Assembly: GCA_963749205.1 (NCBI GenBank)
Contig: CAVVLW010000006.1
Span: 129,176 to 193,175, forward strand
Reading direction: 5' to 3'
DNA length: 64,000 nt
Source: an uncultured Thermoplasmata archaeon
GTDB taxonomy: Archaea > Thermoplasmatota > Thermoplasmata > Lutacidiplasmatales > UBA184
How positions within the stretch are numbered: the first letter of the stretch is position 1; each line of letters starts with the position of its first letter. Of this stretch, positions 4,868 to 61,647 are shown in pieces. Under the pieces are notes generated by a model. That model had not been told where the DNA came from. It saw nothing but the letters and a program-made list of their open reading frames with translations, and did not search any database. The translations under genes and the position numbers were made by a program.

Positions 4868-4972
4868 ATGGACCCTTCGCCGAGGAAACGGACTCTTACT
4901 TCCCGGAGCGCAGGCGCAACAAGGCTGGGAAGCGAGTCGCGCTCCCCGAAACCAAGAATCCTAAAACTCGAG

Positions 4973-5961: not shown

Positions 5962-6306
5962 TCGGTGGCCCCCCGACCTCGAACACTACTCGACACAACG
6001 GATTATGTTGCCCATCTCGCAGGCCACCACCGGGCGAGGCCCGTGGTTGCAACCATGCTTACACCTCTGACGCTGGAGCCACTTCCCTAGGCCAGCAGAA
6101 ACAATTGCTGTCCGCTCCCGTTTTCACCAGTGACCTCAACTTCCCACTCTCGAGAGTACCTCGAACGTTGCCTGGTAGAGCGGCTTCAGCTGCATGAACG
6201 GCGGCCCCTACCGCGTCCCGGAGCGCGTGATTCCCTAGGCTGATTTCTGTGCTACCCCATGGGGCGCCGGTGAATCATGACGGAGTGACCCCGTTCGCTG
6301 GGCCTC

Positions 6307-7262: not shown

Positions 7263-7482
7263 CTACGGAAGGCTCCTACCCGCCGCTCGGGAGGAGGTTC
7301 CGCATGATATACCTCGCGCCGGTCGATGGTAGTTTTTTCCGATCACGACGAGTTTCGCGCTCCGGGGGAGGCTCTCCCGCGATGGTTCGAGCCATCGAAG
7401 TCGCGATTCCCCCTCGGCCGTCAGAAGGGTTCAGGTAGGCGAGCGCATTGGTGATTCGAGCCGTTCCATGATTCCGTCCGAA

Positions 7483-8854
7483 ATGCGGTACGCCAAGAGC
7501 GGGGCACGTGCACGTCGCGTATCAGACGGTGGGAGACGGCCCGGTCGACCTGGTACTCGGATTCAGCGGGATCTCCCAATTGGAGGTGATGTGGGAAGAA
7601 CCCTCCTGCGCGCGCTTCTTCCGGCAGCTCGCCGACTTCAGCCGTCTTATTCTCTTCGACAAACGCGGTACGGGTCTTTCCGACCGCAACGTGGGGATTG
7701 CCACCCTCGAAGACCGTATGGACGACATCCGCGCGGTCCTCGACGCCGTCGGGTCGGAACGGACCGCACTGTTTGGGACCCTCGACGGGACTCCCCTCAC
7801 GCTGCTCTTCGCCGCGACGTACCCGGAGAAGACCGTGGCGCTCATCCTGTGGGGCGGCCAGGCCCGAAGCCTGTGGGCACCAGATTACCCTTGGGCGAAA
7901 ACGGAGGAACAGTGGGAGGCCGAGATCCGGCGCGATGAGGCCGACTGGGGGAGCCCGGCCCATATCGAACGGGTGACCGCTCAACTCGCCCCGAGTCGGC
8001 TCCGCGACCCCGAATTCAAGCGATGGCTCAGCCGACGGGTCCGGTTCGGCGCCTCACCGGCCGAAGGCAGCGCCCTGAGTCGAATGAACATGCAGATCGA
8101 CGTCCGATGGGCGCTCCCCGCCTTGCACGTTCCGACCTTGGTCATGTACACTCCGGCGAGCCGGGCATCGTCGGTCGAGGATGGACGGTTCCTGGCATCG
8201 AAGATCCCCGGAGCCCAAGTCGCTGAGGTGGACTGCCCCGACCACCTGTTCTGGACCACGGCCGAGGGGACACGGGAGGCGGTGGGAGTCATGCGGCGCT
8301 TTGTGGAGGGGCTCGGGAGCTCGCCCGAGAGCGACCGGATCCTGACCACCGTGCTCTTCACCGACCTCGTGGGTTCCACGCAGCTCGCTTCCGCGATGGG
8401 CGATCGACGGTGGGGCGAACTTCTGGACCGTCACTTCGCCAGTGCGCGAAGAGAGCTCGCGCGGCACCGAGGAACGCTCATCAAGACCACGGGGGACGGG
8501 ATGGTCGCGGTCTTCGACGGACCGACCCGCGCGATCCGATGCGCGCTGTCGTTGCGGGACGGAGCGAGAACCGATGGCCTCACGCTGCGTGCGGGGCTCC
8601 ACACCGGGGAGTGCGTGCTCAAGTCGGGGGACGTCCAGGGGATCGCGGTCCATATCGCCTCCCGCATCAGCGACCGAGCCGGTCCCGGAGAGGTCCTCGT
8701 GTCGGGCACCGTCCGGGACCTCTCGGTCGGTTCCGATATCCCGTTCCGTGACCTCGGAGCTCACCCGCTGAAGGGCGTCGAGGGGGAGTGGCGGGTTTAC
8801 GCCACAGGGGAGGGTCTGCCCGCAACAACCCCGACCCAAAGTGAATCGACGTAA
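7483..8854 (+). CDS. Alpha/beta-hydrolase-fold domain fused to a class III adenylate/guanylate cyclase (LipJ-like architecture)
   Basis: ATG 7483 (MRYAKSG) is followed by a 1-nt frame change in g-run 7501-7504 into ORF 7508..8854 (HVAYQTVGDGPVDLVL). The C-terminal cyclase has motifs VLFTDLVGST, TTGDGMVAVF, LRAGLHTGE, GIAVHIASR. Confidence 0.8.
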
Positions 8855-17984: not shown

Positions 17985-18989
17985 ATGACCGGCCGGGCCC
18001 GACGCCCTCCCCGGGTCGTGCGGGAGCGGGAGTTCCACGATCGGCTCGCGCGTACTCTGCCCGCCGGTCACTCCGGACTGCTTCCCCTCGGCGATGACGC
18101 GACGGCGCTCCGACCGCCCCCCGGCCGCGTGGCGGTCATCTCTACCGACACGCTGGTGGAAGGGACCCACTTCCTTCCGTCCTCGCCTCCCGAACGCATC
18201 GGGGCGGCGGCCACGGGCGTCAGTCTCTCCGACGTCGCCGCGAAGGGCGCGACCCCCGACGCGATCCTCCTCGCCCTGGTGCTCCCCGTGGGGACCCCCG
18301 CAGCGTGGGCGGAGGCCGTCGTCCGGGGCGCGGAGCGGTTCGGAGCTCGATTCGGCGCCCACGTCGTCGGCGGCGACACCAAACCGGGCCCGGTCCGCGC
18401 GGTCGTCAGCACGGTGCTGGGGTGGGGACGCGCCGCCCACCTCGCCCCGCGCACGGGCGCCCGTCCGGGCGACGTGCTGGCCACGACCGGCGACGTCGGG
18501 CGAGGGGGACTTGCCGCCGCTCGTCTGGCGGCCGGCGGTGCGCGGGGTCGGCGCGCCGTCGTCGACCTGCTCGACATCCGGCCCCGCGTCCGGGAAGGGA
18601 TTGCGCTCGCCCCGTTCGCCCACGCCCTCATCGACACATCGGACGGGCTCGCGGAGGCGGCCCGTCTCCTCTCGGGGGCGAGCCGCGCGCGACTCATCGT
18701 GGTCGAGGACCGTCTTCCGATCGCCCGGGGCGTCGGGACCGTCGCACCGACCCTCGCCCGACGACGCGAGGTGATCTTCTACGGTGGGGACTACGAACTG
18801 CTGGCGGCGATCCCTCGGGCCGGATGGGCGCGGGCGAGGGCGGCCGTGCGAAAGTCCGGAGGACGGCTCACCGAGGTCGGTCGTGTGGAGCGCGGAGCCG
18901 GGGCCTGGCTCGAGACGGGAGACCACCAGGTTCCGATGCCCGAGGCGGGCTGGCGCACCTTCGGCGCGGACGATCCGTCGGCCGCGTAA
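17985..18989 (+). CDS. thiL: Thiamine-monophosphate kinase
   Basis: Intact 334-aa ORF of the AIR-synthase-related fold (LGDDATAL, STDTLVEGTHF, GVSLSDVAAKGA, VVGGDT, IDTSDGL). Confidence 0.8.
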   Translation: MTGRARRPPRVVREREFHDRLARTLPAGHSGLLPLGDDATALRPPPGRVAVISTDTLVEGTHFLPSSPPERIGAAATGVSLSDVAAKGATPDAILLALVLPVGTPAAWAEAVVRGAERFGARFGAHVVGGDTKPGPVRAVVSTVLGWGRAAHLAPRTGARPGDVLATTGDVGRGGLAAARLAAGGARGRRAVVDLLDIRPRVREGIALAPFAHALIDTSDGLAEAARLLSGASRARLIVVEDRLPIARGVGTVAPTLARRREVIFYGGDYELLAAIPRAGWARARAAVRKSGGRLTEVGRVERGAGAWLETGDHQVPMPEAGWRTFGADDPSAA

Positions 18990-19102
18990 GGTCCCCTCGC
19001 GGTTCGTCCGTTGTCGATACCCGTGTCTCACCGTGGCAGGGTTCTCGCTACCCTCAAGTACCAGTTCCCGGGTCTCCGCGGTACCCGCAAGGGGACGAGA
19101 AC

Positions 19103-20362
19103 ATGGCGAACACCTCCACCATCAATCCGTTCGAGACAGCGAAGCAACAGGTCGACATCGTCGCGGACCTGATCGGGATCGATTCGGGCGTCCGCGAGGT
19201 GCTGAAACACCCGAAGCGGGAGCTGACGGTCAACTTCCCCGTCCGGATGGACGACGGCTCGCTCCGCGTCTACACCGGGTACCGTGTCCAGTACAACATG
19301 GCGCGGGGCCCGTGCAAGGGCGGTATCCGCTACCACCCTCAGGTGACGCTGGACGAGGTCCGCGCGCTCGCGGCCTGGATGACGTGGAAGTGCGCGGTCG
19401 TCAACATCCCCTATGGGGGAGCGAAGGGCGGCGTGGTCTGCGACCCGAAGCACATGTCCCGGAACGAGCTCGAAGGGCTCACCCGCCGGTACGCGAGCGA
19501 GATCGCCATGATCATTGGACCCGAGATCGACATTCCCGCGCCCGACGTCTACACCGACAGCCAGACGATGGCGTGGATCATGGACACCTACTCGATGCTG
19601 AAGGGGTACTCCGTCCCGGGCGTCGTGACGGGGAAGCCGATCAGCCTGGGCGGCAGCGAGGGCCGCGGCGAAGCGACCGGCCGCGGGTGTGCCTACGTCA
19701 TCCGTGAGGCGGCGAAGGACCTCGGCCTCAAGGTGAAGGGCGCGACCGTCGCGATCCAGGGATTCGGCAACGCGGGGAGCGTCGCCGGCAACATCCTCTA
19801 CGACGAGCAGGGCGCGAAGATCGTCGCCGTCTCGGATTCGAAGGGTGGCATCTGGAAGGCCGACGGGTTCAACCCCCACGCGGTCGAGGAGCACAAGCAG
19901 AAGACCGGCTCGGTCGTGGGGTTCCCCGGCGCGAAGTCGATCTCGAACGAGGAGGTCCTCGAGGCGAAGGCCGACATCCTGGTCCCGGCCGCGCTCGAGA
20001 ACCAGATCACCAAGAAGAACGCGGACAAGATCCAGGCGAAGATCGTCGCCGAGGCTGCGAACGGCCCGACCCTCCCCGAGGCCGACACGATCCTGTACCA
20101 GAAGAAGATCGCGGTCCTCCCCGACGTGCTCGCGAACGCGGGCGGCGTCACGGTGAGCTACTTCGAGTGGGCGCAGGACATCCAGGGGTACTACTGGGCC
20201 CTCGACGAGGTCAATTCCCGCCTCGAACGGGTCATGGTACGGTCGTACAACGACGTCCACAAGGTCGCGACCGAGCGCAAGGTCCACAACCGGACCGCGG
20301 CGTACGTCCTCGCGATCCAGCGGGTCGTTGACGCGATCAAGATCCGCGGGATCTACCCGTAG
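19103..20362 (+). CDS. gdhA: Glutamate dehydrogenase
   Basis: 419 aa from ATG 19103. Motifs PCKGGIRYHP, PYGGAKGG, GFGNAGS and NAGGVTVSYFEW. The upstream part of ORF 18305..20362 is R/G/P-rich read-through over thiL. Confidence 0.95.
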   Translation: MANTSTINPFETAKQQVDIVADLIGIDSGVREVLKHPKRELTVNFPVRMDDGSLRVYTGYRVQYNMARGPCKGGIRYHPQVTLDEVRALAAWMTWKCAVVNIPYGGAKGGVVCDPKHMSRNELEGLTRRYASEIAMIIGPEIDIPAPDVYTDSQTMAWIMDTYSMLKGYSVPGVVTGKPISLGGSEGRGEATGRGCAYVIREAAKDLGLKVKGATVAIQGFGNAGSVAGNILYDEQGAKIVAVSDSKGGIWKADGFNPHAVEEHKQKTGSVVGFPGAKSISNEEVLEAKADILVPAALENQITKKNADKIQAKIVAEAANGPTLPEADTILYQKKIAVLPDVLANAGGVTVSYFEWAQDIQGYYWALDEVNSRLERVMVRSYNDVHKVATERKVHNRTAAYVLAIQRVVDAIKIRGIYP

Positions 20363-47867: not shown

Positions 47868-48602
47868 TTACGATTCCCGAACGGGGGTGCCCGACCCTTC
47901 GGTGTCGCTCCCGGTCGACCCCTCGGAGGCGAGCCAGCGTGCGACGAGCCGACCCTCCGCGCGCCGCAGGACCTTTCCGAGACCGGGGGGGCTCCGCCCG
48001 GTCTGCCGGGCGAGGCGGCTCAGCGTGATCCGTCGCGGGACCGTGAAATAACCGAGGACCCACGCCCGCGCGATGAGCTTCGACTGCAAGGGGGTGAGCA
48101 ACGGCGTGGCCCCCTCGGCCGCGAACGGATGGCCCGAGGAGCGCAGGATCTCGTACGGGAACTCCTCGCGGTCGAGCCGCTTCAGCACCCGACGTAATGC
48201 GCGCTCCTCGCCCCGGAACGACGCTACGACCTTATCGGCGTTCAGGCGGAACGGCGCGGTCGGAGCGATCTCCCCTCCGGCGAGCGAGAGGAGGCGACGC
48301 AGCCGTTCGGGATTTCGTTGCCGGACGAGCAGGATGTAGTCGCGCGTGCGGGGACGTCGCTCGACCAGCTCGAAGCTCTCGAGCCCATAGAGCGAGCGGA
48401 TCCTCCGGGATTCCCGTTCGAGTTCGCTCGCGGTGCGGAGCGGGCCGCGTCGGCGAACCCTCAGCAGTTGCAGGCGCCAGCCCTGCTCCAGCCGGAGCGT
48501 CTCGAGGAGTTCGATCTCCTCGTACTTTGCGAAGAGCCCGGGCGGGAGGACTCCCAATAATTCCAGGTCGCCCGATCGGAACTCGAGGGTGACGGATTGC
48601 AT
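47868..48602 (-). CDS. HTH_10 (bacterio-opsin-activator-like) DNA-binding protein
   Basis: The C-terminal motif is LTPLQSKLIARAWVLGYFTVPRRITLSRLARQTG...VLRRAEGRLV. The probable ATG start is at 48602. Confidence 0.65.
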   Translation of the reverse strand: MQSVTLEFRSGDLELLGVLPPGLFAKYEEIELLETLRLEQGWRLQLLRVRRRGPLRTASELERESRRIRSLYGLESFELVERRPRTRDYILLVRQRNPERLRRLLSLAGGEIAPTAPFRLNADKVVASFRGEERALRRVLKRLDREEFPYEILRSSGHPFAAEGATPLLTPLQSKLIARAWVLGYFTVPRRITLSRLARQTGRSPPGLGKVLRRAEGRLVARWLASEGSTGSDTEGSGTPVRES

Positions 48603-48692
48603 GGGCGGACCGCGCGGAGGAGAGGTTCCCATATGAACCTGACCCCCTGGCGTCTCGGTCGGTTAAATAAGGCGGCGGGCTCGCTCGCCGCC

Positions 48693-50177
48693 ATGACGTT
48701 CCGGAACCTGGGCGAGTTCCTCGCCCGGCTCGAGGAGGTCGGGGACCTGGCCCGGGTCGCTCGACCGGTCTCCCGCGACCTCGAAATCACGGAGGTCACC
48801 CAGCGGGCCCTCGGGACCGACGGGCCGGCGCTCCTCTTCGAGAACGTCCCGGGCGCCGCGATGCCGGTCGTAACGAACCTGCTCGGCTCGCCGCGCCGCA
48901 TCGCGCTCGCCCTGGACGCGCCGAACGTCGACGCGGTCGCGGAGCGCGTGGCGCGCCTCGTCCACCTCCGCCCCCCGGCCGGAATACTGGGCGCTGTCCG
49001 CGACCTGTCGGGAACGATCGATGCGCTCTCCACGCTGCGGTCGCTGGCGCCGAAACGTGTCCGGTCCGGGACCGTGCCAGGAGGTCGAGGAGCCGTCCGT
49101 CGACCTCGACCGCTTGCCGATCTTGAAGTGCTGGCCGAAGGACGGCGGCCGGACGATCACCTTCCCGGTCGTCGTCACGTCCGACCCCGATACCGGGGAG
49201 CCCCACACCGGGATCTACCGCCTCCAGCAGTACGGCCCCGACACCCTCGGAATGCATTTCCAGGTCCACCGGGTCGGTGCGAACAACTACCGCAAATGGG
49301 CGGCCCGCGGCGAGAAGATGCCCGTCGCCGCGGTGATTGGCGTCGACCCGGCCACCGTCTTCTCGGGGCTCTCCCCCGTGCCCGAGGGGATCTCCAACTT
49401 CGTCTTCGCGAGCTTTTTGCGCTCGGAGCCGCTCGAGCTCGTCCGGGCCCGGTCGGTCGACCTCGAGGTCCCGGCGCAGGCCGAGATCGTCCTCGAAGGG
49501 TACGTCGACCCGACGGAGCGGCACCTCGAGGGCCCCTTCGGGGACCACACCGGCTACTACTCCGCCCCGGAGCCGTTCCCCGTCTTCCACGTCACGCGCG
49601 TCACGCACCGCGAGCGCCCGGTCTACCTCACGACCGTGACCGGGAAAGCCCCCGACCGAGGACTCGGTCCTCGGCAAGGCGGTCGAACGGGTCTTCCTCC
49701 CGGTCGATCCGGCTCGTGCTGCCAGAAGTGGTCGACATGAACCTGCCGGCCCCGGGGCTGTTCATCAACGTCGGCGTCGTTGCGATCCGCAAGTCCTACC
49801 CGGACCACCCCCGCAAGGTGATGCACGCCCTCTGGGGCCTCGGCCAGATGATGTTCGTTCGGTACCTGATCGTGGTCGACGAGGACGTCAACGTCCACGA
49901 CCTCTCCGAGGTGCTCTACCGCGTGGGCCTCCAGGCCGACCCGGCACGCGACCTCGAGCTCGTCCAGGGACCGGTCGACCAGTTGTCGATCTCGAACCCG
50001 GTGCCGAACATCGGCGGTAAGGTGGGGATCGACGCGACCCGGAAGCGCCCGGAGGACGGGTTCCCGCGTCCGTGGCCCGAGGAGATCCGGTCGGACCCCG
50101 CCGCGAGCCGTGCGGCCGAGCAAGCGATCCGGGAAGACCCGGCCCTCGCGCGGCTCCTCGGTCGGTCGGGTCGGTGA
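48693..50177 (+). CDS. UbiD-family (de)carboxylase (MqnL/UbiD-like); two frame changes
   Basis: ATG 48693 gives MTFRNLGEFLARLEEVGDL. The middle (KCWPKDGGRTITFPVVVTSDPDTGEPHTGIYRLQ, EGPFGDHTGYY) is in the 49021..49740 frame. The C-terminus (DMNLPAPGLF..VVDEDVNVHD) returns to the first frame. Confidence 0.8.
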   Translation: MTFRNLGEFLARLEEVGDLARVARPVSRDLEITEVTQRALGTDGPALLFENVPGAAMPVVTNLLGSPRRIALALDAPNVDAVAERVARLVHLRPPAGILGAVRDLSGTIDALSTLRSLAPKRVRSGTVPGGRGAVRRPRPLADLEVLAEGRRPDDHLPGRRHVRPRYRGAPHRDLPPPAVRPRHPRNAFPGPPGRCEQLPQMGGPRREDARRRGDWRRPGHRLLGALPRARGDLQLRLRELFALGAARARPGPVGRPRGPGAGRDRPRRVRRPDGAAPRGPLRGPHRLLLRPGAVPRLPRHARHAPRAPGLPHDRDRESPRPRTRSSARRSNGSSSRSIRLVLPEVVDMNLPAPGLFINVGVVAIRKSYPDHPRKVMHALWGLGQMMFVRYLIVVDEDVNVHDLSEVLYRVGLQADPARDLELVQGPVDQLSISNPVPNIGGKVGIDATRKRPEDGFPRPWPEEIRSDPAASRAAEQAIREDPALARLLGRSGR

Positions 50178-51513: not shown

Positions 51514-53378
51514 GTGCCGAGAACCGTCGACCGCCTGGAGGGAATCGCCCTCGTCGGGATGGCGAGAGTCGGGGCGTTGGCGTTCTCGACGCCGGGTCTC
51601 GCGGAGAGCCAACCTCCGGCGGATGACGGCGCTGGACTGACCCTGCGCAGCCGCCCGTCGCCCGCCGGCACCCGGGAGCTCACGCTCGCGAACGGCACCG
51701 GGCAGCTCGACCTGCATTTCCCGATCCTTGCCCCCGAGGTCATGGGCGCCCCCGGGACTGGCCTCCCCGTCGGGGACGGCGCCGTTCTCGTCCACGCACC
51801 GCTCTCCCCCCCTCCCGAACTTCCGAGGTCGGCCCCCGTCCCGACCTAGTCGTCCTGGGCAACGCGCGCGCGCTGTGGGCGGACGGCCTTCCGTTCGTCC
51901 GGGCGCTCCGGGAGGTCCGCGAGGTGTACGGAGGGTCTCCCGTGCTCTGGGCACCGCGGGTAGCGCTGCCCCATCGCGTCCCCCTGCTCGCCTATCTCGG
52001 AGTCGACCTGGTCGACACCACCGAGGGCCTGTTCGCCGCAGCCCACGGGACGTACCTCGACCCCACGTTCGGACCGTTCGACGCCGCCATCGCCCGCACC
52101 GAAACGCTCTGCCCGTGCGCGGCGTGCGCCTCCGACCTCGAAGGCCCGCTCCCGGTCCACACCGTACACGCCTATCGACGCGCGATCGCCGAGACCCGCG
52201 CCGCGGCCCGCGCCGGCCGTCTCCGGGAGCTCGTCGAGTCACGACTCACCGCAGAGCCCGCGCTCGCCGAGATGCTCCGCTACGCCGACCGGGAGCTCGC
52301 AGCGTTGTTGGACGAGCGCACCCCCGTCATCGGGGAGGGGCTGCGAGGGTACGTGCTCCTCGAGTCGCAGCGTCGCCCCGAGATGGCCCGCTTCCGGCGC
52401 CGCCTCCTCGAGCGTTACCGCCCCCCACGCTCGAAGACCGTCTTGGTGCTCGTACCGTGCTCGAAGACCAAGCCGTATCGCCACTCCCGATCGCACCGGA
52501 GGTTCGCGACGGCGTGGGAGGGATTGCGTGCCGTCGAGCGGGTCCACGTCGTCTCGGTGAGCTCTCCGATCGGTCTCGTTCCCCGGGAGCTCGAGGACGT
52601 CCCGCCCGCGCGCCACTACGACATCCCGGTCACCGGGGATTGGGTCGACCCGGAACGGGACGCCGTCCTGGCCGGTCTGGGCCACCTGCTCGCCCACGGA
52701 GGCTACCGCTCCGTCGTGGTCCACCTCGACCCCGGGGAGTACACGTTCCTCCGTCCGGCGCTCGTGGGCGGACCGGCCTCGCGCTGGACGATCGAGGACG
52801 ACCGCACCACCTCCCCGGACGCGCTGCGCACGTTGCGTCTCGCCCTCGAAGAGGCGCTCGCCGGGGAGAATCCGGTCCCCGGAGGGCCCCTCGCGGTGGT
52901 GCGGGAGGAGCTGCGGGAGGTCGCGAGCATCCAGTTCGGTCGCTCGGCGGCGGACCGGCTCTTCGCTCCCCCGGTTCCGCTCGCCGGACGCCCCTGGTTC
53001 CAGCGGCTGACCGATGGGCGGGCGGACCTTGCGACCCTACGGGAGGAACGGGGACTGTTCCATCTCACGGTCGCGGGGGCGCGCCGGCTCGTGCCCGGGA
53101 CCCCCCTGTTCGTTGAGGTCGACCCGGCCCTATCGCTGGCCGGCGACCTCTTCACGCCCGGCGTGCGCGGGGCGGATGACGAGATCCGGGTGGGCGACAG
53201 CGTCGTGCTGCTGCGAGGCGGCGCGCTCGCCGGAGTGGGAGAAGCGACGCTCCCCGGCCCCTTGATGCGCGAGCTGGGCCACGGCCTCGCGGTCCGGGTT
53301 CGACATCGCTCGCACCCCCCGACCGACACTCCCATGACGGAGGAGGGACCTCTCCCCGACCCTGGGCCGGTGGTCTAG
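51514..53378 (+). CDS. arcS: Archaeosine synthase ArcS-like (TGT-like N-terminus, DUF5591 core, PUA-like C-terminus); one frame change
   Basis: The N-terminus is in ORF 51514..51849. After about 51845 it continues in the frame of ORF 51924..53378 (DLVVLGNARALW..LAYLGVDLVD, CPCAAC, VLVPCSKTKPY, SSPIGLVPRELE). The last 15 nt overlap tRNA-Val. Confidence 0.7.
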
Positions 53379-53436
53379 TGGTGATGACGCCGCGCTTACA
53401 ACGCGGATATCGACGGTTCGAATCCGTCCCGGCCCA
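53364..53436 (+). tRNA. tRNA-Val (anticodon TAC)
   Basis: Hand-folded 73-nt cloverleaf. Acceptor GGGCCGG/CCGGCCC plus A. D-arm GTCT/TGAC (one mismatch). Anticodon arm CCGCG-ctTACaa-CGCGG. T-arm GACGG-ttcgaat-CCGTC. Confidence 0.92.
53419..53436 (+). repeat. Proximal copy of the 18-nt direct repeat (tRNA-Val 3' end), candidate attL core
   Basis: cgaatccgtcccggccca is identical to 60939-60956. Confidence 0.85.
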
Positions 53437-53438
53437 TC

Positions 53439-53470
53439 GGTATTCGCACCGCCGGGGCGATGCGAATACC
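53439..53470. repeat. Palindromic module adjacent to the proximal core
   Basis: ggtattcgca / ccgccggggcga / tgcgaatacc form a 10-bp inverted repeat, similar in sequence to the module at 60919-60943. Confidence 0.7.
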
Positions 53471-53507
53471 CCTTCGATTTGAGTTCCGAACTCCGAGGTC
53501 AGGTTAT

Positions 53508-54044
53508 TCACGCAATCCGAACAGATAGCGTCAGCCGAATCCAACCCGGTCGAAGTCCGGGCGCTTCTTTTAGTGAAACTCCCCGCGTTCTTGCCATTTC
53601 GATCATCTCATGATACGTCTCGTTCGAGAGGAAATCTTGGAGCCACAAGCGACCACTTACGGCCTGAACCGGGTGGCCACGCGATATCTCGTCGTCCACT
53701 CCTTCGGTGTGCTGAATGGTCAGCGGAAGTCCCTGGCCTGACCAGAGCACTTGCCTGGCGCGACCGTTAGGGTACTCGAAGCGAATGCCTCTCTCATCGA
53801 CAGAAACATCGACGGCACCAGGAGACCACTTCCAGAGGCCCCCGATCGCCGATAACGCGGCGAAGAGGAGTGCGAAAGCTGTCACGAAGAGGGTAACTCT
53901 CGTCCAACCCGGACCCACAATCGCGCTGGCCGCGAAGTATGAGCATATCCCCCCGAACAAGACCGCCCCTCCAAGGGAGATCAGTCGTGTGAGCCGTATC
54001 AGTGCCTTGTAGCGTTGGACACCGTCCGCGGCAGTGAAACTCAC
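53508..54044 (-). CDS. Hypothetical two-TM membrane protein with a soluble C-terminal domain
   Basis: GTG 54044 lies 1 nt after the stop of the giant gene. The helices are LISLGGAVLFGGICSYFAASAIVG and VTLFVTAFALLFAALSAIGGLW. A roughly 100-aa domain follows (VDVSVDERGIRFEYPNG..). No family recognised. Confidence 0.5.
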   Translation of the reverse strand: MSFTAADGVQRYKALIRLTRLISLGGAVLFGGICSYFAASAIVGPGWTRVTLFVTAFALLFAALSAIGGLWKWSPGAVDVSVDERGIRFEYPNGRARQVLWSGQGLPLTIQHTEGVDDEISRGHPVQAVSGRLWLQDFLSNETYHEMIEMARTRGVSLKEAPGLRPGWIRLTLSVRIA

Positions 54045-54045
54045 T

Positions 54046-57000
54046 TCAGGTTCCCCCAGCCACTTCGGCAACGTCGACGACGAAGGCCCCAAAATCCCCG
54101 AGCAGAACGAGAGCATTCACCAGAGGTGGCAATCCATCCGGCGGACCAAATAGGTCTATGATCACGCTGTCCGCATCGAAGACCATAGAGAGGATGGATC
54201 CGAACAACGAACTTACGGCAGCCGCTGCCGCGCACGTAACGATAGCTATGATCCCTAAGGCAGCCCCAACTGTGTCCGACCACGGAGCGTTCGTCTTCTG
54301 AAGCCACGCGTTGAGGACGACACTCCCTGCAACGCTTGTTGTGCCGGCTCCGAGTAACGAGCCCAGAGCCTCGAAGTCGGTGCTGTCAGCTCCACTAAGC
54401 TTCATCTCGAAGGAAGATCCCCCTCCATCCCGAGCGTCGTCAGGACCGCCACTGGCCCCAGTCAGATTCCCGAGTTCGTACCCAACTGATGGTGATAGTG
54501 GGCTCATTTGCGAGAAATATTTCGAAACGTTGGACCCGCCGGCAAGTATAGAGCCTGCAAGAATGCCGCTAACTAGGGCTCCGATTATGAGCGAGAGAAC
54601 GAATGCCGAACCCAGCGACACTCCTTCTATGACTGTTACGACCACTTCTATGGCGACAGCCGCAGCCAGTGCCACCCAAAACAGTGGTTGGGCCACATCC
54701 GACCAGAACCGAGCCTCGTCCTTGGTTGCCGAGCTTTTCGCGATTGTATCATTGACGACTTGTTGGAAGTCGCTCGCCAGCCGGGACGTATAGGCCTCCG
54801 CGGCTGCGATAATCGGTCCGAACGCGATCTTGAGGGCCACCAGCGCAATTTGGGCAAGGTACGCTAGCAGTTGATCCAACGCACGTACGATGAGCTGCCC
54901 GACATGGACGATCGCGGCAGCGGTCCGGGCGAGGACCTGCGCCCCAATCGCCGCCGCTTCGTTTGCGATGCGGTTGAGGTACGTCGTAGCCGCGACCGCC
55001 ACGGAATAGACTTCCCCGACAATGGAGACGATTGCCCCCGTGATCGTCGTCACCACCGCAGAGAAAGCGTTCCAGAAATCGCCCCAAATCCCCCCGGCCG
55101 ATGGCGGCGCTTTATTGTGGGTCGGCGGCCCGTAGAGACCCTGGGAGATCACCGGGGCGTTAGCCAGCGCCGAGAGGACTGGAGCGTCGAGGCCCAGTGA
55201 CGCGACCTGGTTCGTCACGGTCTGGAAGGTGCCGTTCACCCCCGCTGTCGTGTTTGTGAGGAGTGCGGAGAGGAGCAGGTCGAAAGTGGCTGTCGATGTG
55301 ATGTTCAGGGTTACGATCGCCTCCAGGGACGGAGGCATTGGGACGCTAGAGTAAATCGACGGATTGCTGGCCAATCCGCCGGTGTTGTTTGCAAGTGTCG
55401 TCTGCACGACCATCGTGCGAACTTGAAGCGGGCTGGAGCTGGACACCCCAGTCTCCGCGGTGGTGAAATTCCCGGGTGGAGAAGCGATCGAACGGTTCTG
55501 CCAGTACGCCTCGAGGTCGAACATCAGACCGGAGGCAGATCCAAACGACTGCGTAAGGAGACTCCGCGCGGTGGAATCGCTGCTCAATATTGGGGGCGTA
55601 GGATGGGAACTGGGGTACGGGAAGTTCTTCCCTTCGAATACGGCCGTCGCGAACGGGGAGTTCAGGAACTGCTCCCGAGGGAATAGGAGATTGTTCAGTC
55701 CCGGCTGCAGCGAGATCGTGTAGCTGCCACCCCAAGGGTAGGGAATGGATACCGATGTCAACGAGGCCGACGCGTTGATGACGACGAGGTCGAACGACTG
55801 CTCGCCGGTATACCGTTCGAGACCCGGGGGAAGCCCGTTCACTGTCGAGTTGTCGTCCGGTAGCCAGAGATACGTCGGAGTCTTGCGGTCGAGAGGAACG
55901 GTCGAGAGGGCGAGAGCGAGGGTGCCGTTCGGATTCCCGGTGGTGTTGGACCAAGACTCGGAGACGAGCGCGCCATGAACCATGTCGTAGGTCACGTCAA
56001 CTTTCTTGAGAGTCCCATCGAACGGCACTGCGGTAAGGGTGGAGGAGCCAGATTCGTTGACGAGAACCTCGATCTGGACGGTCTCAAACTGAGAGGTCTG
56101 GCTGGACGGGAGGACGACCGTATAGCCGGTGAGTAAGGAGATGCCCCCGGAGAGGCCGACGGGGGCGCTATAGTTAGTGAGCTCCGGCGTTCCCGTCGCC
56201 GTGCTACCCGCGTAGAGCTGGAATTGGGCGGCGTACCCCTCCCCCGTCTTGAGATGCATTACGTAGAGATGGGAGACAGTGACCGAGAGACCGATGGGGG
56301 CAGACGGGTTGATTCGAGAGCCATCTGCAATACCGTCCTGCGGAGCCGAGGCGGCGAGAGGGTCCGCTCCCCAGGAGAGCTTGCCCCACACAGTCATGGT
56401 ACGGTATCCCTTCCAGGCCCCGGTCGTTGCGCGTAGCCAGCCGGCCGCCTTGACGCCGGTTAGGTTCACAAAGGTGGAGAGCGCGGCGGAAGACCAGAGC
56501 ACGGTAGCAGCCCATGGGGAGCCGTCCCCGCTGGCGATCCCGCCCGCTGGAGCCGGAGTCAGATTCGTCCGGTTCTGGTTGGCACTCGACGGGGCTCCGC
56601 TAGGGAATGGGACGTACGATGAGTTCTCGTACCAGTATTCGAAACCGGACTTGGGCAGCTTCGCGCTCGTCGCTAATCCCACGTTGAAGGTGAGATTCCA
56701 AGTGTCGAGCATGTGGCTGCCCGCCGTGTCGACGGTAGTCGGGTTCAGACCGAACTCCTTTTCGATGTAATCGCCGACGAGCCCGTTCGTTGAGTAGAGG
56801 GACGGATCGGCCGTGGCCCTTTGTTGGACGACCCCGCCGCTGACGTTCGTGAAAGTGACCGGCCAGCCGTTCAGTTTCTCCACATCGGTGAGGCCATCTC
56901 CAGAGCTATCTTGTAGGTAAATGAAGCTCAACGGAGCGCTCGAAAGCGAGAGGCTCTGACCATCCCAGGTGAAGTTCCAGATTTCCTGGACAGTGTAGGA

Positions 57001-58467
57001 CGCGTTCCCCGTCATCCCGGTCAGGTTTTCGAGGAACCCTCCCCAGCCGTACTGTATCGCGATGAGGGAAGGTATGGGAATTACGATGCTCGAACCGGTG
57101 CCGCTGGAGAGACCGTAGGTGATCGCACCGCCGGTATAGAGGTGCAATTGATCGTAGAGACTGATCGCCATCGGAGCGAAGATGCCCTCCCCTCCGCCGG
57201 TCTGAGTGATCGAATCGTACGGGTAGGCGATGGATTGCAGCGTGAATCCCTGCCCGAGCTCGGCGAGGGTAGTCTTACCGTTCGATACGCTGAAACAACT
57301 TCCGATAGATTCCGTGACGGTGGCATTGAGCTCGTAGAACGCCGCGCCGAAGAGGCCGTTCAGCCCCGCGGTGAAGGTGTAGGTCCCTGAACTGAAGGTT
57401 CGCGCGGCGACCACCGAGAAATTCAGGGTGGTTCCGATTTCGTAGTACTCGAGTATCCCTAAGCCTCCGGTATTCGAGGTCCAGGTGACGGTCCCTGTAT
57501 CGTTTTTCCCGGACGTGGTTACTATGTTGTTGATTTCGATGTTGTTCGCGATCGTCTCGAACGTGCACGCAGCCTGATACTGCTGAGCCTCGGAGGAGGT
57601 CTGCTGGTTTGCCGAGAGGGTCGGCTTGAGAGTGGAGTTCCAACCACCGGGGTAGCTCACAGTGCTAACCTCGGCGGTGAAGTTGATGTTCTTCAGCGAA
57701 CTGCTTGTGTAGTTTATCCCGGTGGAGAGCACGTAACCCGTTGCGGGTGAGGTTTTGGCGGTCACTGGGCTCGAAGGGTTCAGAGTTTCCGTGCCCTCGG
57801 CCAGCATTGAGTTCCGCCATGCGATCGAAAGCGATTTGTTGCCCGACTGGGTCGCGCTGAGCTGGGTCACAAGGGTGGTCACAAAGGTCGAGCCTCCCGA
57901 CATCGAAATCGAGGTCGGATACCCGCTCATGGGGCTCGTTTTTTGCATCTGGGAGACCAACGGGTCGCAACCGCCGCCGAACCCGTGGTAGTTGACCGTG
58001 TCGAATTCCATCGTGTAGGTGGCCGTCTGGACCGCTGTCCACGAAACCCGGGAATCGGCGGAAAGATTCTGCAGGTAGATATTCGGTATCCATGATGATG
58101 ACTTCAGGGTGACGGTCGACTGATTGTCGATGGTCACCGTGTTGTTGTACGACGTCGGCATGTCGTAATAGTTCGTGCGCGGCTCGTAGACGACCTCCCC
58201 GTTGCAGGTGATCTCCTGCGTGCCGAAGGTCGGTGGCGGGATGTACCACGTGTACACCCCCCAAAACGACAGCTCCGCGATCGTCGGGCTCAGCATCGTC
58301 GTATTCGACCAACCGTCACTAATGTTCCCGTCGAGCGGGGTCGAAGTGTAGACGGGGGCGGGAAACAGGCTCGACGACGGGAGACTGTTCAGGAGCGTTG
58401 CGTTCACCAGTGGGTTGGCGGCGGCGATCGCTTCGACCCCTTCTGCGGCAAGAAGCCAGTCGGACAC
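54046..58467 (-). CDS. Giant (1473 aa) sequon-rich surface protein with a polytopic C-terminal membrane region, unknown family
   Basis: The ORF is uninterrupted, with a GTG start 33 nt after the upstream stop. I count about 35 N-x-S/T sequons. DSSGDGLTDVEKLNGW and EKEFGLNPTTVDT resemble thrombospondin-type-3-like Ca-binding repeats. The last roughly 430 aa contain long hydrophobic helices (LFWVALAAAVAIEVVVTVIEGV, AFVLSLIIGALVSGILAGSILAG, AALGIIAIVTCAAAAAVSSLF). Confidence 0.75.
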   Translation of the reverse strand: MSDWLLAAEGVEAIAAANPLVNATLLNSLPSSSLFPAPVYTSTPLDGNISDGWSNTTMLSPTIAELSFWGVYTWYIPPPTFGTQEITCNGEVVYEPRTNYYDMPTSYNNTVTIDNQSTVTLKSSSWIPNIYLQNLSADSRVSWTAVQTATYTMEFDTVNYHGFGGGCDPLVSQMQKTSPMSGYPTSISMSGGSTFVTTLVTQLSATQSGNKSLSIAWRNSMLAEGTETLNPSSPVTAKTSPATGYVLSTGINYTSSSLKNINFTAEVSTVSYPGGWNSTLKPTLSANQQTSSEAQQYQAACTFETIANNIEINNIVTTSGKNDTGTVTWTSNTGGLGILEYYEIGTTLNFSVVAARTFSSGTYTFTAGLNGLFGAAFYELNATVTESIGSCFSVSNGKTTLAELGQGFTLQSIAYPYDSITQTGGGEGIFAPMAISLYDQLHLYTGGAITYGLSSGTGSSIVIPIPSLIAIQYGWGGFLENLTGMTGNASYTVQEIWNFTWDGQSLSLSSAPLSFIYLQDSSGDGLTDVEKLNGWPVTFTNVSGGVVQQRATADPSLYSTNGLVGDYIEKEFGLNPTTVDTAGSHMLDTWNLTFNVGLATSAKLPKSGFEYWYENSSYVPFPSGAPSSANQNRTNLTPAPAGGIASGDGSPWAATVLWSSAALSTFVNLTGVKAAGWLRATTGAWKGYRTMTVWGKLSWGADPLAASAPQDGIADGSRINPSAPIGLSVTVSHLYVMHLKTGEGYAAQFQLYAGSTATGTPELTNYSAPVGLSGGISLLTGYTVVLPSSQTSQFETVQIEVLVNESGSSTLTAVPFDGTLKKVDVTYDMVHGALVSESWSNTTGNPNGTLALALSTVPLDRKTPTYLWLPDDNSTVNGLPPGLERYTGEQSFDLVVINASASLTSVSIPYPWGGSYTISLQPGLNNLLFPREQFLNSPFATAVFEGKNFPYPSSHPTPPILSSDSTARSLLTQSFGSASGLMFDLEAYWQNRSIASPPGNFTTAETGVSSSSPLQVRTMVVQTTLANNTGGLASNPSIYSSVPMPPSLEAIVTLNITSTATFDLLLSALLTNTTAGVNGTFQTVTNQVASLGLDAPVLSALANAPVISQGLYGPPTHNKAPPSAGGIWGDFWNAFSAVVTTITGAIVSIVGEVYSVAVAATTYLNRIANEAAAIGAQVLARTAAAIVHVGQLIVRALDQLLAYLAQIALVALKIAFGPIIAAAEAYTSRLASDFQQVVNDTIAKSSATKDEARFWSDVAQPLFWVALAAAVAIEVVVTVIEGVSLGSAFVLSLIIGALVSGILAGSILAGGSNVSKYFSQMSPLSPSVGYELGNLTGASGGPDDARDGGGSSFEMKLSGADSTDFEALGSLLGAGTTSVAGSVVLNAWLQKTNAPWSDTVGAALGIIAIVTCAAAAAVSSLFGSILSMVFDADSVIIDLFGPPDGLPPLVNALVLLGDFGAFVVDVAEVAGGT

Positions 58468-58500
58468 GACGTCGAGATAGGTGACCGCCGAACCGAACCC

Positions 58501-60248
58501 CTAGGACGGCACCAGGACTCCGAACGGGCGTTCCTTACCGCCGGTGGTAACGGGGCCGGTGTTGACGGCCGAAGTTAGGGTCGCGCCACCCGCGATCGTG
58601 TACCGTTGGTTGGGGCTCTGGCCCGCCACCTGTTCGCCGATGTACGAGAGGGGGCTGATGCTCACATTCTGATACAACCCGGCCGTCACATTGCGCGTTG
58701 CGTCGAGGTAGGGGAGATTCATCGCTCTGCTCGCGTTGGCGGCGACTTCGCTCAGCATTCCGGCCACCCCGGCCGTGAAAGTGGACGCGCTGGTCGAGCC
58801 GACCAGGTTCGGACTGCTCACGTTCAGCACGCCCTGCTGCATCGCGGCAACGGCGTTGGCGACAGAGAGGAAAGCGCCAGTTTCCGAGAGGGCGTTTCCC
58901 CCCGGGCTCGCAGGCGTTGCCCAGGTCAAGAGTAAACGTTGGAACGAATCGACCGCCATCCCCACCAGTAGACGGTTCCCGACCTTCCAGGCCCCTGTTC
59001 CGCCAGGTAGAGGAGCAGGATCCTGGACGATACGTCCGTCCGGTGAGAAGACCGCGCTCTCGATCGTGGTGAGGTTGGTTCCGGCGGTCGCGAGCCAGGA
59101 AGCGTAGACGTAGCCGACTTGGGTTCCGAGCACTTCGGGGTCGATCATCGCCCCCGCGGTCAGAGGGAACAGCGACGGCCCTTCCCAAATGAGGCCGTCG
59201 TCCGAGGAGATGTATACCGCTCCGATTACCTGCCCCAACTGTAGCACCGTGGAGAGTACGAAGAGATTCCCTCCGACGACCGTGGCAGACACCTGGCCCA
59301 GGAATCCGCCGGGCGTGTTGAGAAAGGTGGATCCGATCGTGGCGAGGGCCGCGGAGACGTTCGTGTCGTTCAGGGGACCGATCTTCGTTGAGCCGAAGCT
59401 TCGACCATCGTTCCAGGACGAGTAAAACACTACTGTGTTCGATGGCGTTGAAGCGACTACTCCTTCCTCTGCCCCTGCCTGGGTCCTGAGGATCACAGGA
59501 TTTGCGTCGACAACCGCGCCAAGGGTAGTGCTGACGATGGTCCCACCCGGGATCGGGAATGTCGTGACGAGCAAGGTGCCCCCGCTCCCTATCGTGGTCG
59601 CGGCCACAAATCCGTAGGGGTCGAGAGCGAGACGGACGTCGGTGCCGGCGACACTTCCGAGGCTCGTCCAGGAAGCTCAGAGCGCTCGCGACGCTCGACA
59701 GGTAAAGATACGACGTCGACCCGCAGGTGATCCCCGCGACAACCGACGAACCGTCGGCGGCGACCACCAGTGCTGACGAGGAGCAGTTGCTCTTCGCCGA
59801 AAATCCCCCAATATTGTAAGGGGTCGACCAACTGAGGGGGAGCGTGGGGCTCGGCTGCCCGGGAGGTCCCGGAACGTCCTGCAGGATGTTCTGAGCGATG
59901 GAAGGGGCGAAGATCCCTTCGGAGACCTCGAAGCTCGTCGTGTAACTCAGCGGGTGTGAACTGACCACGGTAGACGCGTATACGAGAATGTAAAGCGGGT
60001 TGGTCCCGATGCCCTGTCGCTCCGAGCTGGGGAAGGTAGAGCGTCTGGTTGGAAGTGGCCGAAATGGCCGATTCCGGACTCGGGAAGAGGGAAGGAGAGA
60101 CCAGGTAAGGATAGTAAGGAGTTGAGGCGCCGGTGATCCCCGGTGGGTAGGTCGGCGGTCCAGGACCCGAGGCTCTTGCGATACCGAAAGCGGAAAAGAC
60201 CATGATGAGGACAGAGAAAATCGCTAGGATGGACGGACGAACGGGCAA
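58501..60248 (-). CDS. Secreted BNR/Asp-box (sialidase-like beta-propeller) repeat protein; two frame changes
   Basis: TTG 60248 gives a signal-like MPVRPSILAIFSVLIMVFSAFGIARA. The frame changes near 60030 (g-run 60029-60032) and near 59675. Asp-box-like SSWNDGRSFG and SSDDGLIWEG are in ORF 58501..59607. About ten sequons are present. Confidence 0.6.
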
Positions 60249-60918
60249 GCGAGCGCCTCGCCGCCAAGGGCGAGAGGCTCGTCCTCGAGAATAGGACGTC
60301 ACGCACCGGGTCCGGCCGGTGATTGCAGGGGGACCACAGGGCTCGAGAGTTGAACGCGTGAACTCCAGACTCTCGTAGGGATCGCGGTGCGCCGGGTTTG
60401 GCCTGAAGGCCACGGTGTCCTCGTCGACGGCCCGGCACCCGGCTCGAAGCCGGGGCGTCTTGGAGTGGGGCAATGAATCCGGCCTAATGAACCTGCTGTC
60501 GTGTACGAGAGATAGGGCGGTCTGCCTCACCGCTACGGACGCTTTCCCCGCTTTTTGGCCCGAACACCGAATGGAAGACGGCGCAGTCTCCCAAGCGCGC
60601 CTCTTCGACATGTCGTACGGAACTGTGCGGCGAATTAATTCGCCCGATACTGCCTACGGGTCGGCGATCGGTCTGTGAAAGGGCGCGGGCGATAATTCTG
60701 AGTTCTGAGGTTGCCCAACGGGATGTATTCGAACTACCAGTTGAATGCGGTTGTCGGGACTCGAACCCACCTGGCCTCAATCAAGCGACTCCCTCAGGAT
60801 GAGGATGGAATCGATCCGTCGTTGTCCGGGAGGGAGTTATCGATAGGTTGTGAACCAACTATAGCTCACATCTCGCCGGAATCAGTCCGGCCGAGTCGTA
60901 TCAATGCACGTCTGTGAT

Positions 60919-60943
60919 ATTCGTATCGCGGGGCGATACGAAT
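60919..60943. repeat. Perfect 11-bp palindromic module running into the distal core
   Basis: attcgtatcgc / ggg / gcgatacgaat. The 3' arm overlaps the start of the 18-nt core copy. Confidence 0.75.
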
Positions 60944-60956
60944 CCGTCCCGGCCCA
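60939..60956 (+). repeat. Distal copy of the 18-nt direct repeat, candidate attR core
   Basis: cgaatccgtcccggccca is identical to the tRNA-Val 3' end. No cloverleaf lies upstream of it. Confidence 0.85.
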
Positions 60957-60985: not shown

Positions 60986-61461
60986 TCACTCACCCGGCGC
61001 ACCGGGCGCAACGTACAACGTGATGGTCCAGTTGCCCGATTGTTGGTAGATACCGGATTCATTATCCGGCGCAATCCAGGTGGCGTTGCCCCACGGGGCG
61101 CCAAATCCAGTGGATCCGTAGAACGTAACTCCCGTGAACGGCTCTGTCACGGAAACAAGCGTTCCATCGCCGTCTCCACAGAAGTACCTCGCGCTAGATG
61201 GAACGTGAAGCTGACGAATTGCACCATCTCTGAGGTTTTGGTCCAAGTATCGTTGTTTGTAGAATGAAGGGCTTGCATCGAGTTCACCGTGGTCAACTCG
61301 TGGCAGTAGTCGTGTCCCTGGACAGAGACCGGAAGCCCGTTGGAGGCGGGGCATGCACCACCCGTGCTCGCCGGATAGCTCGGGAAAATCCCCAGCACGA
61401 GTATCACGGCGATCGCAACCGCTGTCCCTGCAAATATGGCGTAGAGCGTTCGTCGCTCCAT
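60986..61461 (-). CDS. Hypothetical membrane-anchored or secreted small protein; one frame change
   Basis: ATG 61461 gives MERRTLYAIFAGTAVAIAVILVLGIF (ORF 61147..61602 frame). After about 61300 it continues as ELDASPSFYKQRY...GNATWIAPDNESG...NWTITLYV (ORF 60986..61354). G+C is low (45% on line 61201). Confidence 0.4.
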
Positions 61462-61606
61462 GGGATTCCTAGTCTTCTCGCAAGTATGCCCGGCGGTCCC
61501 GTATATCCATTGCCGGAGGGCGGGGAATGAGATTCCCGGGGGGATGTGCGGACGGCGCACGCGGTCGATGATCCACCGCGAGGGGCACTGCAACCAATTC
61601 AAGGTC

Positions 61607-61647
61607 GATACTCGTATCGCCCGGCGACACGAATCCGCCCCGCCCGA
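61607..61647 (+). repeat. Degenerate third copy of the palindromic module plus tRNA-3'-like tail
   Basis: gatactcgtatcgcccggcgacacgaatccgccccgcccga matches 60916-60956 at 34 of 41 positions (ungapped hand alignment). Confidence 0.6.

Follow-up and report, generated by a model that had tools for sequence, protein, structure and literature searches.

We analysed a 64,000-nucleotide (nt) stretch of DNA from an uncultured Thermoplasmata archaeon (assembly GCA_963749205.1, contig CAVVLW010000006.1, forward-strand positions 129,176 to 193,175), hereafter called the window. Its longest open reading frame (ORF), of 1473 codons, had been described from the sequence alone as an uninterrupted orphan giant surface protein (the original prediction). 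The ORF is the distal 71% of a gene of ~2,084 codons, here called the giant gene, which is followed immediately by a small gene, the partner, encoding a protein with two transmembrane (TM) helices (Table 1). On balance, we read the two genes as forming, in Lutacidiplasmatales-like Thermoplasmata, a surface module that is mobile and polymorphic and of a polymorphic-toxin-like or self-recognition kind. The layout of the locus is that of bacterial polymorphic toxin systems (PTS). The most informative feature, which had been missed, is that the C-terminal module of the giant protein and the small membrane protein encoded downstream form a hypervariable, swappable pair with orphan copies.

The hypervariable C-terminal pair

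Alleles are exchanged at three conserved junction motifs, and the unit exchanged comprises the distal ectodomain, the C-terminal membrane module and the partner. The giant protein of the window was compared with those encoded at other loci of the family (designated L001, L002 and so on). Against L001, which is the contig of the homologous protein P0002 and 89% identical to the window at the nucleotide level, residues 200-1300 are 92-100% identical and the remainder 24-34%, with the mosaic breakpoint just upstream of the motif GWLRATTGAWKGYRTMTVWGKLSWGA. L007 and L011 match the protein of the window at 55-75% identity over residues 1200-1900, but at only 20-30% in their N-terminal halves. The last ~290 residues have 15-34% identity to the six relatives compared. 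The membrane module is 15-39% identical to that of other members, including those with an ectodomain identity of 50-95%; the exception is L037 (68%).

The partner is intact in the window. The encoded protein combines a short basic N-terminus with two TM helices and a probably cytoplasmic domain of ~100 residues. At ~20 loci, the gene of a homologous two-TM protein of ~180-200 residues lies directly downstream of the giant gene. These proteins are 11-23% identical to the partner of the window in a multiple alignment and 20-33% in pairwise alignments. A profile search with the partner gave seven matches, all of them hypothetical proteins, in which close alleles were 62-70% identical.

Four loci (L007, L013, L019 and L030) carry partial copies of the giant gene downstream of the full-length one. 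These orphan fragments correspond to the C-terminal 100-600 residues, begin at the motifs TxLWxPxDNST..GLxRYTGEQxFDL or YWQNR, and are each followed by a partner gene of their own; the partners of one locus are mutually 25-30% identical. Locus L035 (positions 177-7394) contains a tandem array of at least eight diverged genes of the partner family, encoding 170-250 residues each, with no fragment of the giant gene between them. L037 is the sole locus examined that has a close partner. Its partner is 68% identical to that of the window, and the last 314 residues of its giant protein are also 68% identical to the membrane module of the window; at the other loci the corresponding values are 20-33% and 15-39%.

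The mosaic build of the giant protein also suits a rather unlikely alternative, namely an ordinary structural surface protein (envelope, glycocalyx or adhesin) encoded in a flexible island, in which recombination and diversifying selection driven by viruses or grazers generate the mosaic. The partner would then be an assembly or anchoring factor, and the orphans would be recombination debris or silent cassettes serving antigenic-type variation, such as those of the Mycoplasma MgPa/P1 adhesins. An assembly factor is hard to fit, however, with a separate diverged partner for each orphan and with the at least eight partner-only genes of L035. In addition, the part that evolves fastest is the membrane-embedded module and not the exposed ectodomain, the reverse of what receptor evasion predicts.

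Mobility and transfer RNA sites

The cassette moves between genomes and sits at transfer RNA (tRNA) genes, flanked by repeats of the tRNA end. In the window, the 18-nt repeat of the tRNA-Val end has two exact matches where 0.01 would be expected, and the bracket formed by them encloses only the partner and the giant gene. Likewise, only the two cassette genes lie within the brackets of L034 (tRNA-Leu, 16-nt repeat) and L011 (tRNA-Gly, 151-nt repeat). The bracket of L006 (tRNA-Arg, 19-nt repeat) spans 17.3 kb and includes a divergent tyrosine integrase, a PrimPol, a resolvase and an insertion sequence (IS) element. In L005, an imperfect repeat of ~100 nt surrounds the two genes. A divergent tyrosine integrase adjoins the tRNA in L005, L006 and L023. 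The guanine-cytosine (GC) content of the giant gene is 0.57-0.65 whatever that of its flanks (0.58-0.74), and the L001 copy is found in an unrelated genomic context.

Other loci lie between housekeeping genes with no detectable repeats. Both patterns can be accommodated by a structural surface protein. Several loci sit among housekeeping genes with no mobile-element genes nearby, and a tRNA-adjacent island of deviant GC recalls the cell-wall genomic island of Haloquadratum, which has reportedly been described with the same pattern.

The original prediction had also proposed a spike or fusogen-like protein of an enveloped or pleomorphic mobile element. Its mobile-element part holds as far as the tRNA-Val repeat bracket, the foreign GC content and the recurrence at other tRNAs are concerned, but not as regards relatives in viral collections. 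In our view, a virus or mobile element, enveloped or pleomorphic, that resides at tRNA-Val and uses the ORF product as envelope, spike or fusogen protein to promote membrane fusion or vesicle transfer is very improbable. The tRNA-end brackets of four loci, the 17.3-kb element of L006 with its tyrosine integrase, PrimPol and resolvase, and a cassette GC content foreign to the host are compatible with it, as is a predicted helix of 89 residues preceded by a hydrophobic Gly/Ala/Trp segment, which together superficially resemble a class I fusion peptide with heptad repeat. That helical region is, however, modelled with low confidence and hypervariable. Foldseek searches of the PDB and of the viral library BFVD with the C-terminal model returned only generic FN3/Ig matches with low TM-scores and no viral glycoprotein or fusogen. 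No relative of the giant protein was found among 2.9 million IMG/VR contigs, 50,697 phage records and 72,556 plasmids. Inside the brackets there is no capsid, packaging or other virus hallmark gene, and those of the window, L011 and L034 hold two genes only.

Further repeats were observed at or near some of the loci. Past the right repeat of the window, the tRNA-end sequence recurs in degenerate form (74% identity), and there is a 23-nt inverted repeat, 91% complementary, at a spacing of 670 nt; the sites are 60919-60941, 61612-61634 and 61625-61647. Between them lie two small ORFs, at 60986-61354 and 61147-61602, one of which has a TM segment. The GC content of this DNA is still low, and these repeats and ORFs may be left over from an earlier insertion at this site. 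In L002, direct repeats of ~600 bp (3760-4350 and 18529-19120, with exact blocks of 201, 102 and 42 nt) flank 14.8 kb that contains the giant gene, the partner and SLFN/AlbA_2 and AAA_33 genes, with no tRNA; this could be another kind of element boundary. L003, L011 and L012 agree in the genes that flank the cassette on the chromosome (one for a GCD14-type methyltransferase, and others) and in the tRNA-Gly(GCC) there. Relative to these genes, the cassette of L011 is turned the other way, which implies either independent insertion or inversion at one site.

Predicted architecture of the giant protein

The giant protein is a sequon-dense, doubly anchored surface protein. An N-terminal basic tail and TM helix (SILAIFSVLIMVFSAFGIA) anchor it, and ~1,900 residues are displayed outside the cell, consisting of a sialidase/lectin-like beta-propeller, a helical segment, several immunoglobulin (Ig)/FN3 sandwiches and an acidic-motif core. 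The same layout is found family-wide, with an N-terminal TM segment, none for ~1,700 residues, and four to eight hydrophobic segments in the last 300-400 residues. The original prediction of an archaeal surface protein agrees with this, in that the protein is extracytoplasmic, sequon-dense and membrane-anchored and belongs to a Thermoplasmata archaeon, nearly all named homologs coming from Thermoplasmata/Lutacidiplasmatales metagenome-assembled genomes (MAGs).

The ORF contains 37 N-x-S/T sequons (~35 had been estimated), 34 of them within its first 1120 residues. Composition-preserving shuffles of this part gave 15.8 +/- 3.5 sequons and never more than 27, so that the enrichment is genuine; it is limited to the part predicted to be extracellular. 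Across the family, the sequon density is 2.4 per 100 residues. The ORF is rich in Ser (11.7%), Thr (10.4%), Gly (9.6%) and Asn (5.3%), as had been noted, and also in Ala (10.3%).

Structures were predicted with AlphaFold2 (AF2) for the N-terminal 917 residues of P0002 and for ORF residues 300-1473. The P0002 model has a predicted local distance difference test score (pLDDT) of 79 and a predicted template modelling score (pTM) of 0.75. It comprises a beta-propeller at residues 44-442 (pLDDT ~88), three helices and beta-sandwich domains. Foldseek matched the propeller to sialidases, pseudaminidase, propeller lectins and SorCS2 (E 1e-9 to 1e-7, target TM-score 0.46-0.67); the comparators named were P. 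aeruginosa pseudaminidase 2w38, NanA, Neu2, Photorhabdus PHL/PLL and the SorCS2 VPS10 domain. The N-terminal ~400 residues resemble sialidase/BNR (Asp-box) propellers and propeller lectins in being modelled as a beta-propeller with visible Asp-box-like motifs of the form SxDxGxxW/F (e.g. SSDDGLIWEGP and SWNDGRSFGS). They differ in that no Pfam BNR or sialidase match was obtained. The BNR-propeller gene that had been taken for a neighbour of the ORF is the N-terminal domain of the same protein.

In the ORF model, pLDDT was 80-90 for the FN3-like domains, the acidic-motif core and further sandwiches. The FN3/Ig pair was matched by Foldseek to tandem FN3 receptors (E 6e-6 to 1e-4), and the homolog P0040 has a Pur_ac_phosph_N/fn3 Pfam match of 27.1 bits, under the 30-bit cut-off. 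The two thrombospondin-type-3-like motifs of the original prediction (DSSGDGLTDVEK and EKEFGLNPTTVDT) are both present and fall in the most conserved columns of the family, where D, G, D, G, L, D, E and K are invariant in the core. The Pfam TSP_3 profile (PF02412), however, gave no match at E<=1, and the likeness amounts to a degenerate DxxxDGxxDxxE-like resemblance.

As had been predicted, the C-terminal part is a multi-helix region and not a single anchor. The last ~350 residues of the ORF hold five to seven hydrophobic segments (residues 1133-1160, 1199-1225, 1258-1312, 1397-1430 and 1446-1471), with the Gly/Asp loop of the original prediction between them. The membrane module consists of a Pro-rich hinge, a hydrophobic W..WNA segment, a very long predicted helix, four to six further hydrophobic helices and this loop. 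AF2 modelled it entirely as helices, one of 89 residues, with pLDDT < 50.

No characterised family had been recognised in the ORF, and sequence searches of its core against Pfam, PHROGs, NCBIfam, PADLOC and the PDB likewise gave nothing. The structure searches matched generic FN3/Ig domains and propeller folds, and no fusogen, spike or S-layer protein. A structural surface protein would agree well with a huge sequon-dense ectodomain of Ig/FN3 and propeller domains that has TM anchors at both ends; no S-layer family was matched, and the copy number is variable, with tandem copies. The sole result of the profile against the PDB (E=0.015), between the W..WN helical region and the tape-measure protein of phage 80alpha, was judged compositional and discarded.

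Gene structure and assembly comparison

The ORF is indeed the longest of the window (the next-longest encodes 768 residues), but it is neither uninterrupted as a gene nor complete. The first homology search returned homologs of 1,944-2,400 residues that reach far upstream of ORF residue 1, and the alignment with full-length homologs passes unbroken through the GTG of the ORF. GTG 58467 is an internal codon and not the start of the gene. When P0002, which is 95% identical, was used as tblastn query, its N-terminal 600 residues mapped to window positions 60203-58504 across three frames; this mapping was also made with P0001 as query. The likely true start is GTG 60302 or TTG 60248. The lack of an obvious signal peptide that had been noted holds for the ORF, whose own N-terminus has no signal or TM segment, because the true N-terminus with its basic tail and TM helix lies upstream of the GTG.

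Three differences account for the break. In the DNA alignment with L001, the window has one extra base at ~60015 and one at ~59674. The third is an in-frame TAG (58503-58501), where L001 has GAG (Glu) and P0001 has Gln. An independent assembly of the same locus, L036, was reached through a match to the partner gene. Over ~19 kb (window 62721-43768) it is 99.7% identical to the window, with 31 mismatches and 24 indels. Both 1-nt insertions are absent from L036, in which the UbiD gene of the host is intact at 493 residues; the frameshifts of the window are therefore assembly errors. L036 also carries indels of its own, within the stretch where the window ORF is open.

The TAG is common to the window and L036, and is for this reason probably real. 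After codon ~600, it probably inactivates or splits the gene in this strain. Its sequence context is CCTAGG, and the differences between the window and L036 are enriched in CTAG sites, so that the TAG may also be a basecalling artefact common to both assemblies. Pyrrolysine at the TAG was considered and rejected, as homologs have Glu or Gln there and the lineage is not known to use it.

Whether the locus of this strain is a non-functional remnant is, in our judgement, evenly balanced. The 1473-residue ORF, downstream of a real nonsense codon and lacking start context and signal sequence, would then not be translated as such; this is compatible with any function of the family. The occurrence of the TAG in two independent assemblies, the ORF N-terminus devoid of signal or TM segment and the bracket devoid of an integrase speak for it. 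After removal of the assembly errors, however, a single disruption remains in ~6.2 kb, and any inactivation must therefore be very recent. Furthermore, CTAG contexts are the most discrepancy-prone sites between the assemblies, which makes a basecalling artefact possible, and the partner gene is intact.

The majority of frame breaks in the window are long-read assembly errors. The original prediction had stated that most long genes of the window are frame-broken; this was confirmed for at least one host gene, UbiD. UbiD_N and UbiD_C were found in ORF 48597-50177 (+) and the middle UbiD domain in another frame at 49021-49740. The ORF is one open frame of 526 residues of which only the ends are correctly framed. 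The breaks are caused by an extra C at ~49706, ~49648 and ~49070 relative to L036, and the wrong frame stays open because of the high GC content. A GC3 frame plot was too noisy on its own for counting frameshifts in host genes. Differences between the window and L036 are often located in or beside CTAG, GATC, CTCGAG and GGTACC-like palindromes (e.g. at 61194, 60738, 54866 and 54575), which suggests methylation-linked basecalling errors of long reads. In L001, positions 1-1974 are an inverted, degraded copy of the N-terminal region of the giant gene (window 58207-60241; 80% identity, 57 gap openings). It was considered as a variation cassette, but an assembly artefact at the contig end was thought likelier than a real copy.

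Distribution of the family

The giant protein is not an orphan. A family profile was built from the C-terminal 1174 residues and found 86 proteins in a set of 5.8 billion; an exhaustive search with it yielded at least 505 representatives of 50%-identity clusters (257 at E<=1e-30). Members typically have 2,000-2,750 residues, and the conserved module of ~1,150 residues is C-terminal in every case. Some contain inserted TIG domains or a sub-threshold FN3 match. In the source databases they are named only 'hypothetical' or 'IPT/TIG domain-containing protein'.

The organism names are nearly all Thermoplasmata, Lutacidiplasmatales or 'Euryarchaeota archaeon'; one record under Metallibacterium scheffleri is probably a mis-binned MAG. 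A pattern-limited scan of species-representative genomes gave 25 loci, in Thermoplasmata/Lutacidiplasmatales MAGs except for one titled 'bacterium' and one 'archaeon'. The giant gene is present in two copies in several MAGs, and tandem copies occur too. With 25 genomes in such a scan and a variable copy number, it does not look like a universal envelope component, which counts against a structural surface protein. The host GC content of ~0.70 agrees with the description of Lutacidiplasmatales/Terrestrial Miscellaneous Euryarchaeotal Group (TMEG) (PMC9287336).

A dozen of the top 150 representatives have 590-800 residues and match only from profile position ~384, 430, 540 or 580. These starts are the junction motifs, and free-standing orphan C-terminal modules therefore seem common in the family; some of the short representatives may be fragments due to contig ends or frameshifts.

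Comparison with known systems

The locus was compared with the bacterial contact-dependent inhibition (CDI) system CdiA-CT/CdiI and with Rhs/RhsI. In gene layout it is like these: it encodes a surface protein of very great length, conserved towards the N-terminus and variable towards the C-terminus, and has a small gene immediately downstream that co-varies with the C-terminal region in L037. Orphan C-terminal fragments with their own small gene lie downstream, and arrays of the small gene only are found. Conserved junction motifs take the role of VENN or PxxxxDPxGL, and the genes have a place in horizontally mobile islands. The differences are that neither in sequence nor in fold is there a relation to CdiA, to Rhs or to a toxin or immunity family of the catalogues; that the variable end is a polytopic hydrophobic module of 350 residues instead of a soluble enzyme; that the swapped unit also takes in 150-450 residues of ectodomain; and that the archaeal host lacks an outer membrane as well as a two-partner, type VI or type VII secretion context.

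In pore-forming colicins and the ionophoric CdiA-CT(EC93), the C-terminal effector is helical and hydrophobic, and a small polytopic immunity protein works in the membrane of the producer. The hydrophobic, predicted helical C-terminus of the giant protein and the small membrane protein resemble this pair; no homology was detected, and the C-terminal module of the giant protein is larger and modelled at pLDDT < 50.

The Mycoplasma adhesins P1 and MgPa (P140/P110) are large, sialoglycan-binding proteins with a C-terminal TM anchor that are varied by recombination with truncated silent RepMP/MgPar copies. The present host likewise belongs to a class that includes wall-less genera, and its giant protein shares with these adhesins the large size, the sialoglycan-binding type of surface protein, the C-terminal TM anchor and variation by recombination with truncated silent copies. 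In contrast to them, the silent copies here have their own partner and membrane module, and no homology was detected.

In archaeal tRNA-integrating elements, direct repeats of the tRNA end bracket the inserted DNA. The cassette is bracketed in the same way, and L005, L006 and L023 have a tyrosine integrase at the tRNA; the brackets of the window, L011 and L034, however, hold no integrase, replication or transfer genes. Membrane proteins of the pT26-2 family (PMC2926602) were considered as analogues and found not comparable.

The closest described archaeal analogue of the giant-gene locus is VARTIG of the Thermococcales (arCOG07710), a large secreted Ig-domain protein with an explicitly PTS-like organisation, in which the C-terminal region is hypervariable through recombination and is followed by variable downstream genes (Makarova et al. 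2021, PMC8416519). No counterpart was found outside the Thermococcales in that study (PMC8416519), whereas nearly all named members of the present family are Thermoplasmata. The giant protein also differs from VARTIG in having no match to Pfam CARDB (PF07705), in a variable end made of a multi-helix membrane module and a two-TM protein, and in forming a cassette at tRNA genes; the hallmark DNNxxxGG C-terminal motif was not searched for.

Proposed function

By analogy with CDI/Rhs and VARTIG, the propeller and Ig stalk may attach to the glycans of a neighbouring cell. The allele-specific business end would be the variable hydrophobic module at the C-terminus, either a membrane-active effector or an element of self/non-self recognition, and the partner a cognate membrane-resident protector or pairing protein. 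Together they would mediate allele-specific antagonism or recognition between cells. Silent orphan C-terminal fragments with their own partners accumulate downstream of the giant gene, and partner-only arrays occur as well. A more specific form of this can be put forward only tentatively: an archaeal contact-dependent system in which propeller and stalk engage possibly wall-less Thermoplasmata neighbours, the C-terminal module is deployed against or into the membrane, the partner acts as immunity protein, and the two genes form an integrase-less cassette inserting at tRNA genes.

Several points weigh against a polymorphic-toxin-like or self-recognition module. Searches of Pfam, NCBIfam, PADLOC, PHROGs and the PDB found no toxin, pore-former or immunity family in the membrane module or the partner, and the AF2 prediction of the module, at a confidence < 50, gives no usable model of its fold. 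Over 190 locus pairs, the identities of partner and membrane module are weakly correlated (rho 0.13, p 0.08) because both are saturated; the case for co-variation therefore rests mainly on one close pair, L037. In the window itself there is neither an orphan module nor a partner array, tRNA-Val lying directly past the partner, and no integrase is found between 53439 and 60938. With TM anchors at both ends, there is no obvious route for delivery of the C-terminus into another cell. The hydrophobic module could be a mere anchor that evolves fast through weak constraint, and the window copy, with its TAG, may be dead.

Next to nothing is known about the mutual interactions of the uncultured soil Thermoplasmata (TMEG/Lutacidiplasmatales), and few counterparts of the polymorphic toxin or kin-recognition systems of bacteria have been described in archaea, VARTIG being the main case. 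The present family, with more than 500 clusters at 50% identity and a core that has no Pfam model, would add a second, unrelated PTS-like surface module of archaea. It offers a testable prediction, the cognate pairing of membrane module and two-TM partner, and an unusual case of a two-gene cassette in a bracket of tRNA-end repeats with no integrase of its own. The practical point for annotation is that a single gene underlies both the '1473-aa orphan' and the 'BNR-propeller gene' upstream of it.

Features of the window

The features of the locus are listed in Table 1.

Table 1. Coordinates of the features of the giant-gene locus in the window
Feature	Position	Strand	Remarks
tRNA-Val(TAC)	53363..53438	+	ARAGORN; Rfam 72 bits; 3' end (53419-53436) is the left copy of the attachment-site (att)-like repeat
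Low-GC cassette	53439..60938		7.5 kb; GC 0.60 vs ~0.70 in flanking host DNA
Partner gene, ~178 residues	53508..54044	-	Likely GTG start 1 nt past the TGA of the giant gene; mechanical ORF extends to ATG 54116
ORF	54046..58467	-	1473 codons, GTG start; longest ORF of the window
Hypervariable C-terminal membrane module	54049..55110	-	ORF residues ~1120-1473; hydropathy, AF2, identity comparison
Junction motif AYWQNR	55492..55509	-	ORF residues 987-992; W989 and R992 invariant; orphans of L013 and L019 begin here
Junction motif TYLWLPDDNSTVNGLPPGLERYTGEQSFDL	55786..55875	-	ORF residues 865-894; columns invariant; orphans of L030 and L019 begin here
Conserved core with three degenerate thrombospondin-type-3-like acidic motifs (DSSGDGLTDVEK, EKEFGLNPTTVDT, WGADPL..DGIADG)	56308..56955	-	
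Junction motif GWLRATTGAWKGYRTMTVWGKLSWGA	56365..56442	-	ORF residues 676-701; most invariant block of the family, pattern GWLRA..WGKLSWGA
Two tandem FN3/Ig-like beta-sandwich domains	56908..57570	-	ORF residues ~300-520; AF2 and Foldseek
Beta-sandwich domains, first ~300 residues of ORF	57571..58467	-	AF2 strands at residues 617-909 of the P0002 model
In-frame TAG	58501..58503	-	In the frame of the ORF, 33 nt upstream of its GTG
First ~600 codons of the giant gene	58504..60302	-	In three frames in the window; tblastn with P0002/P0001, DNA alignment to L001 and L036
Predicted beta-propeller	~60074-58876	-	Followed by a three-helix segment; N-terminal part of the gene
Basic tail and TM anchor (SILAIFSVLIMVFSAFGIA)	anchor ~60240-60180	-	N-terminal part of the gene
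Right copy of att-like repeat	60939..60956	+	Exact 18-nt copy of the tRNA-Val 3' end

Away from this locus, two ORFs with adenylate/guanylate cyclase domains were observed at 1978-4284 (-) and 7508-8854 (+), one with TPR repeats and the other with an alpha/beta-hydrolase fold. Both are located in a 16-kb stretch of lower GC content (0.62-0.65) at the start of the window.

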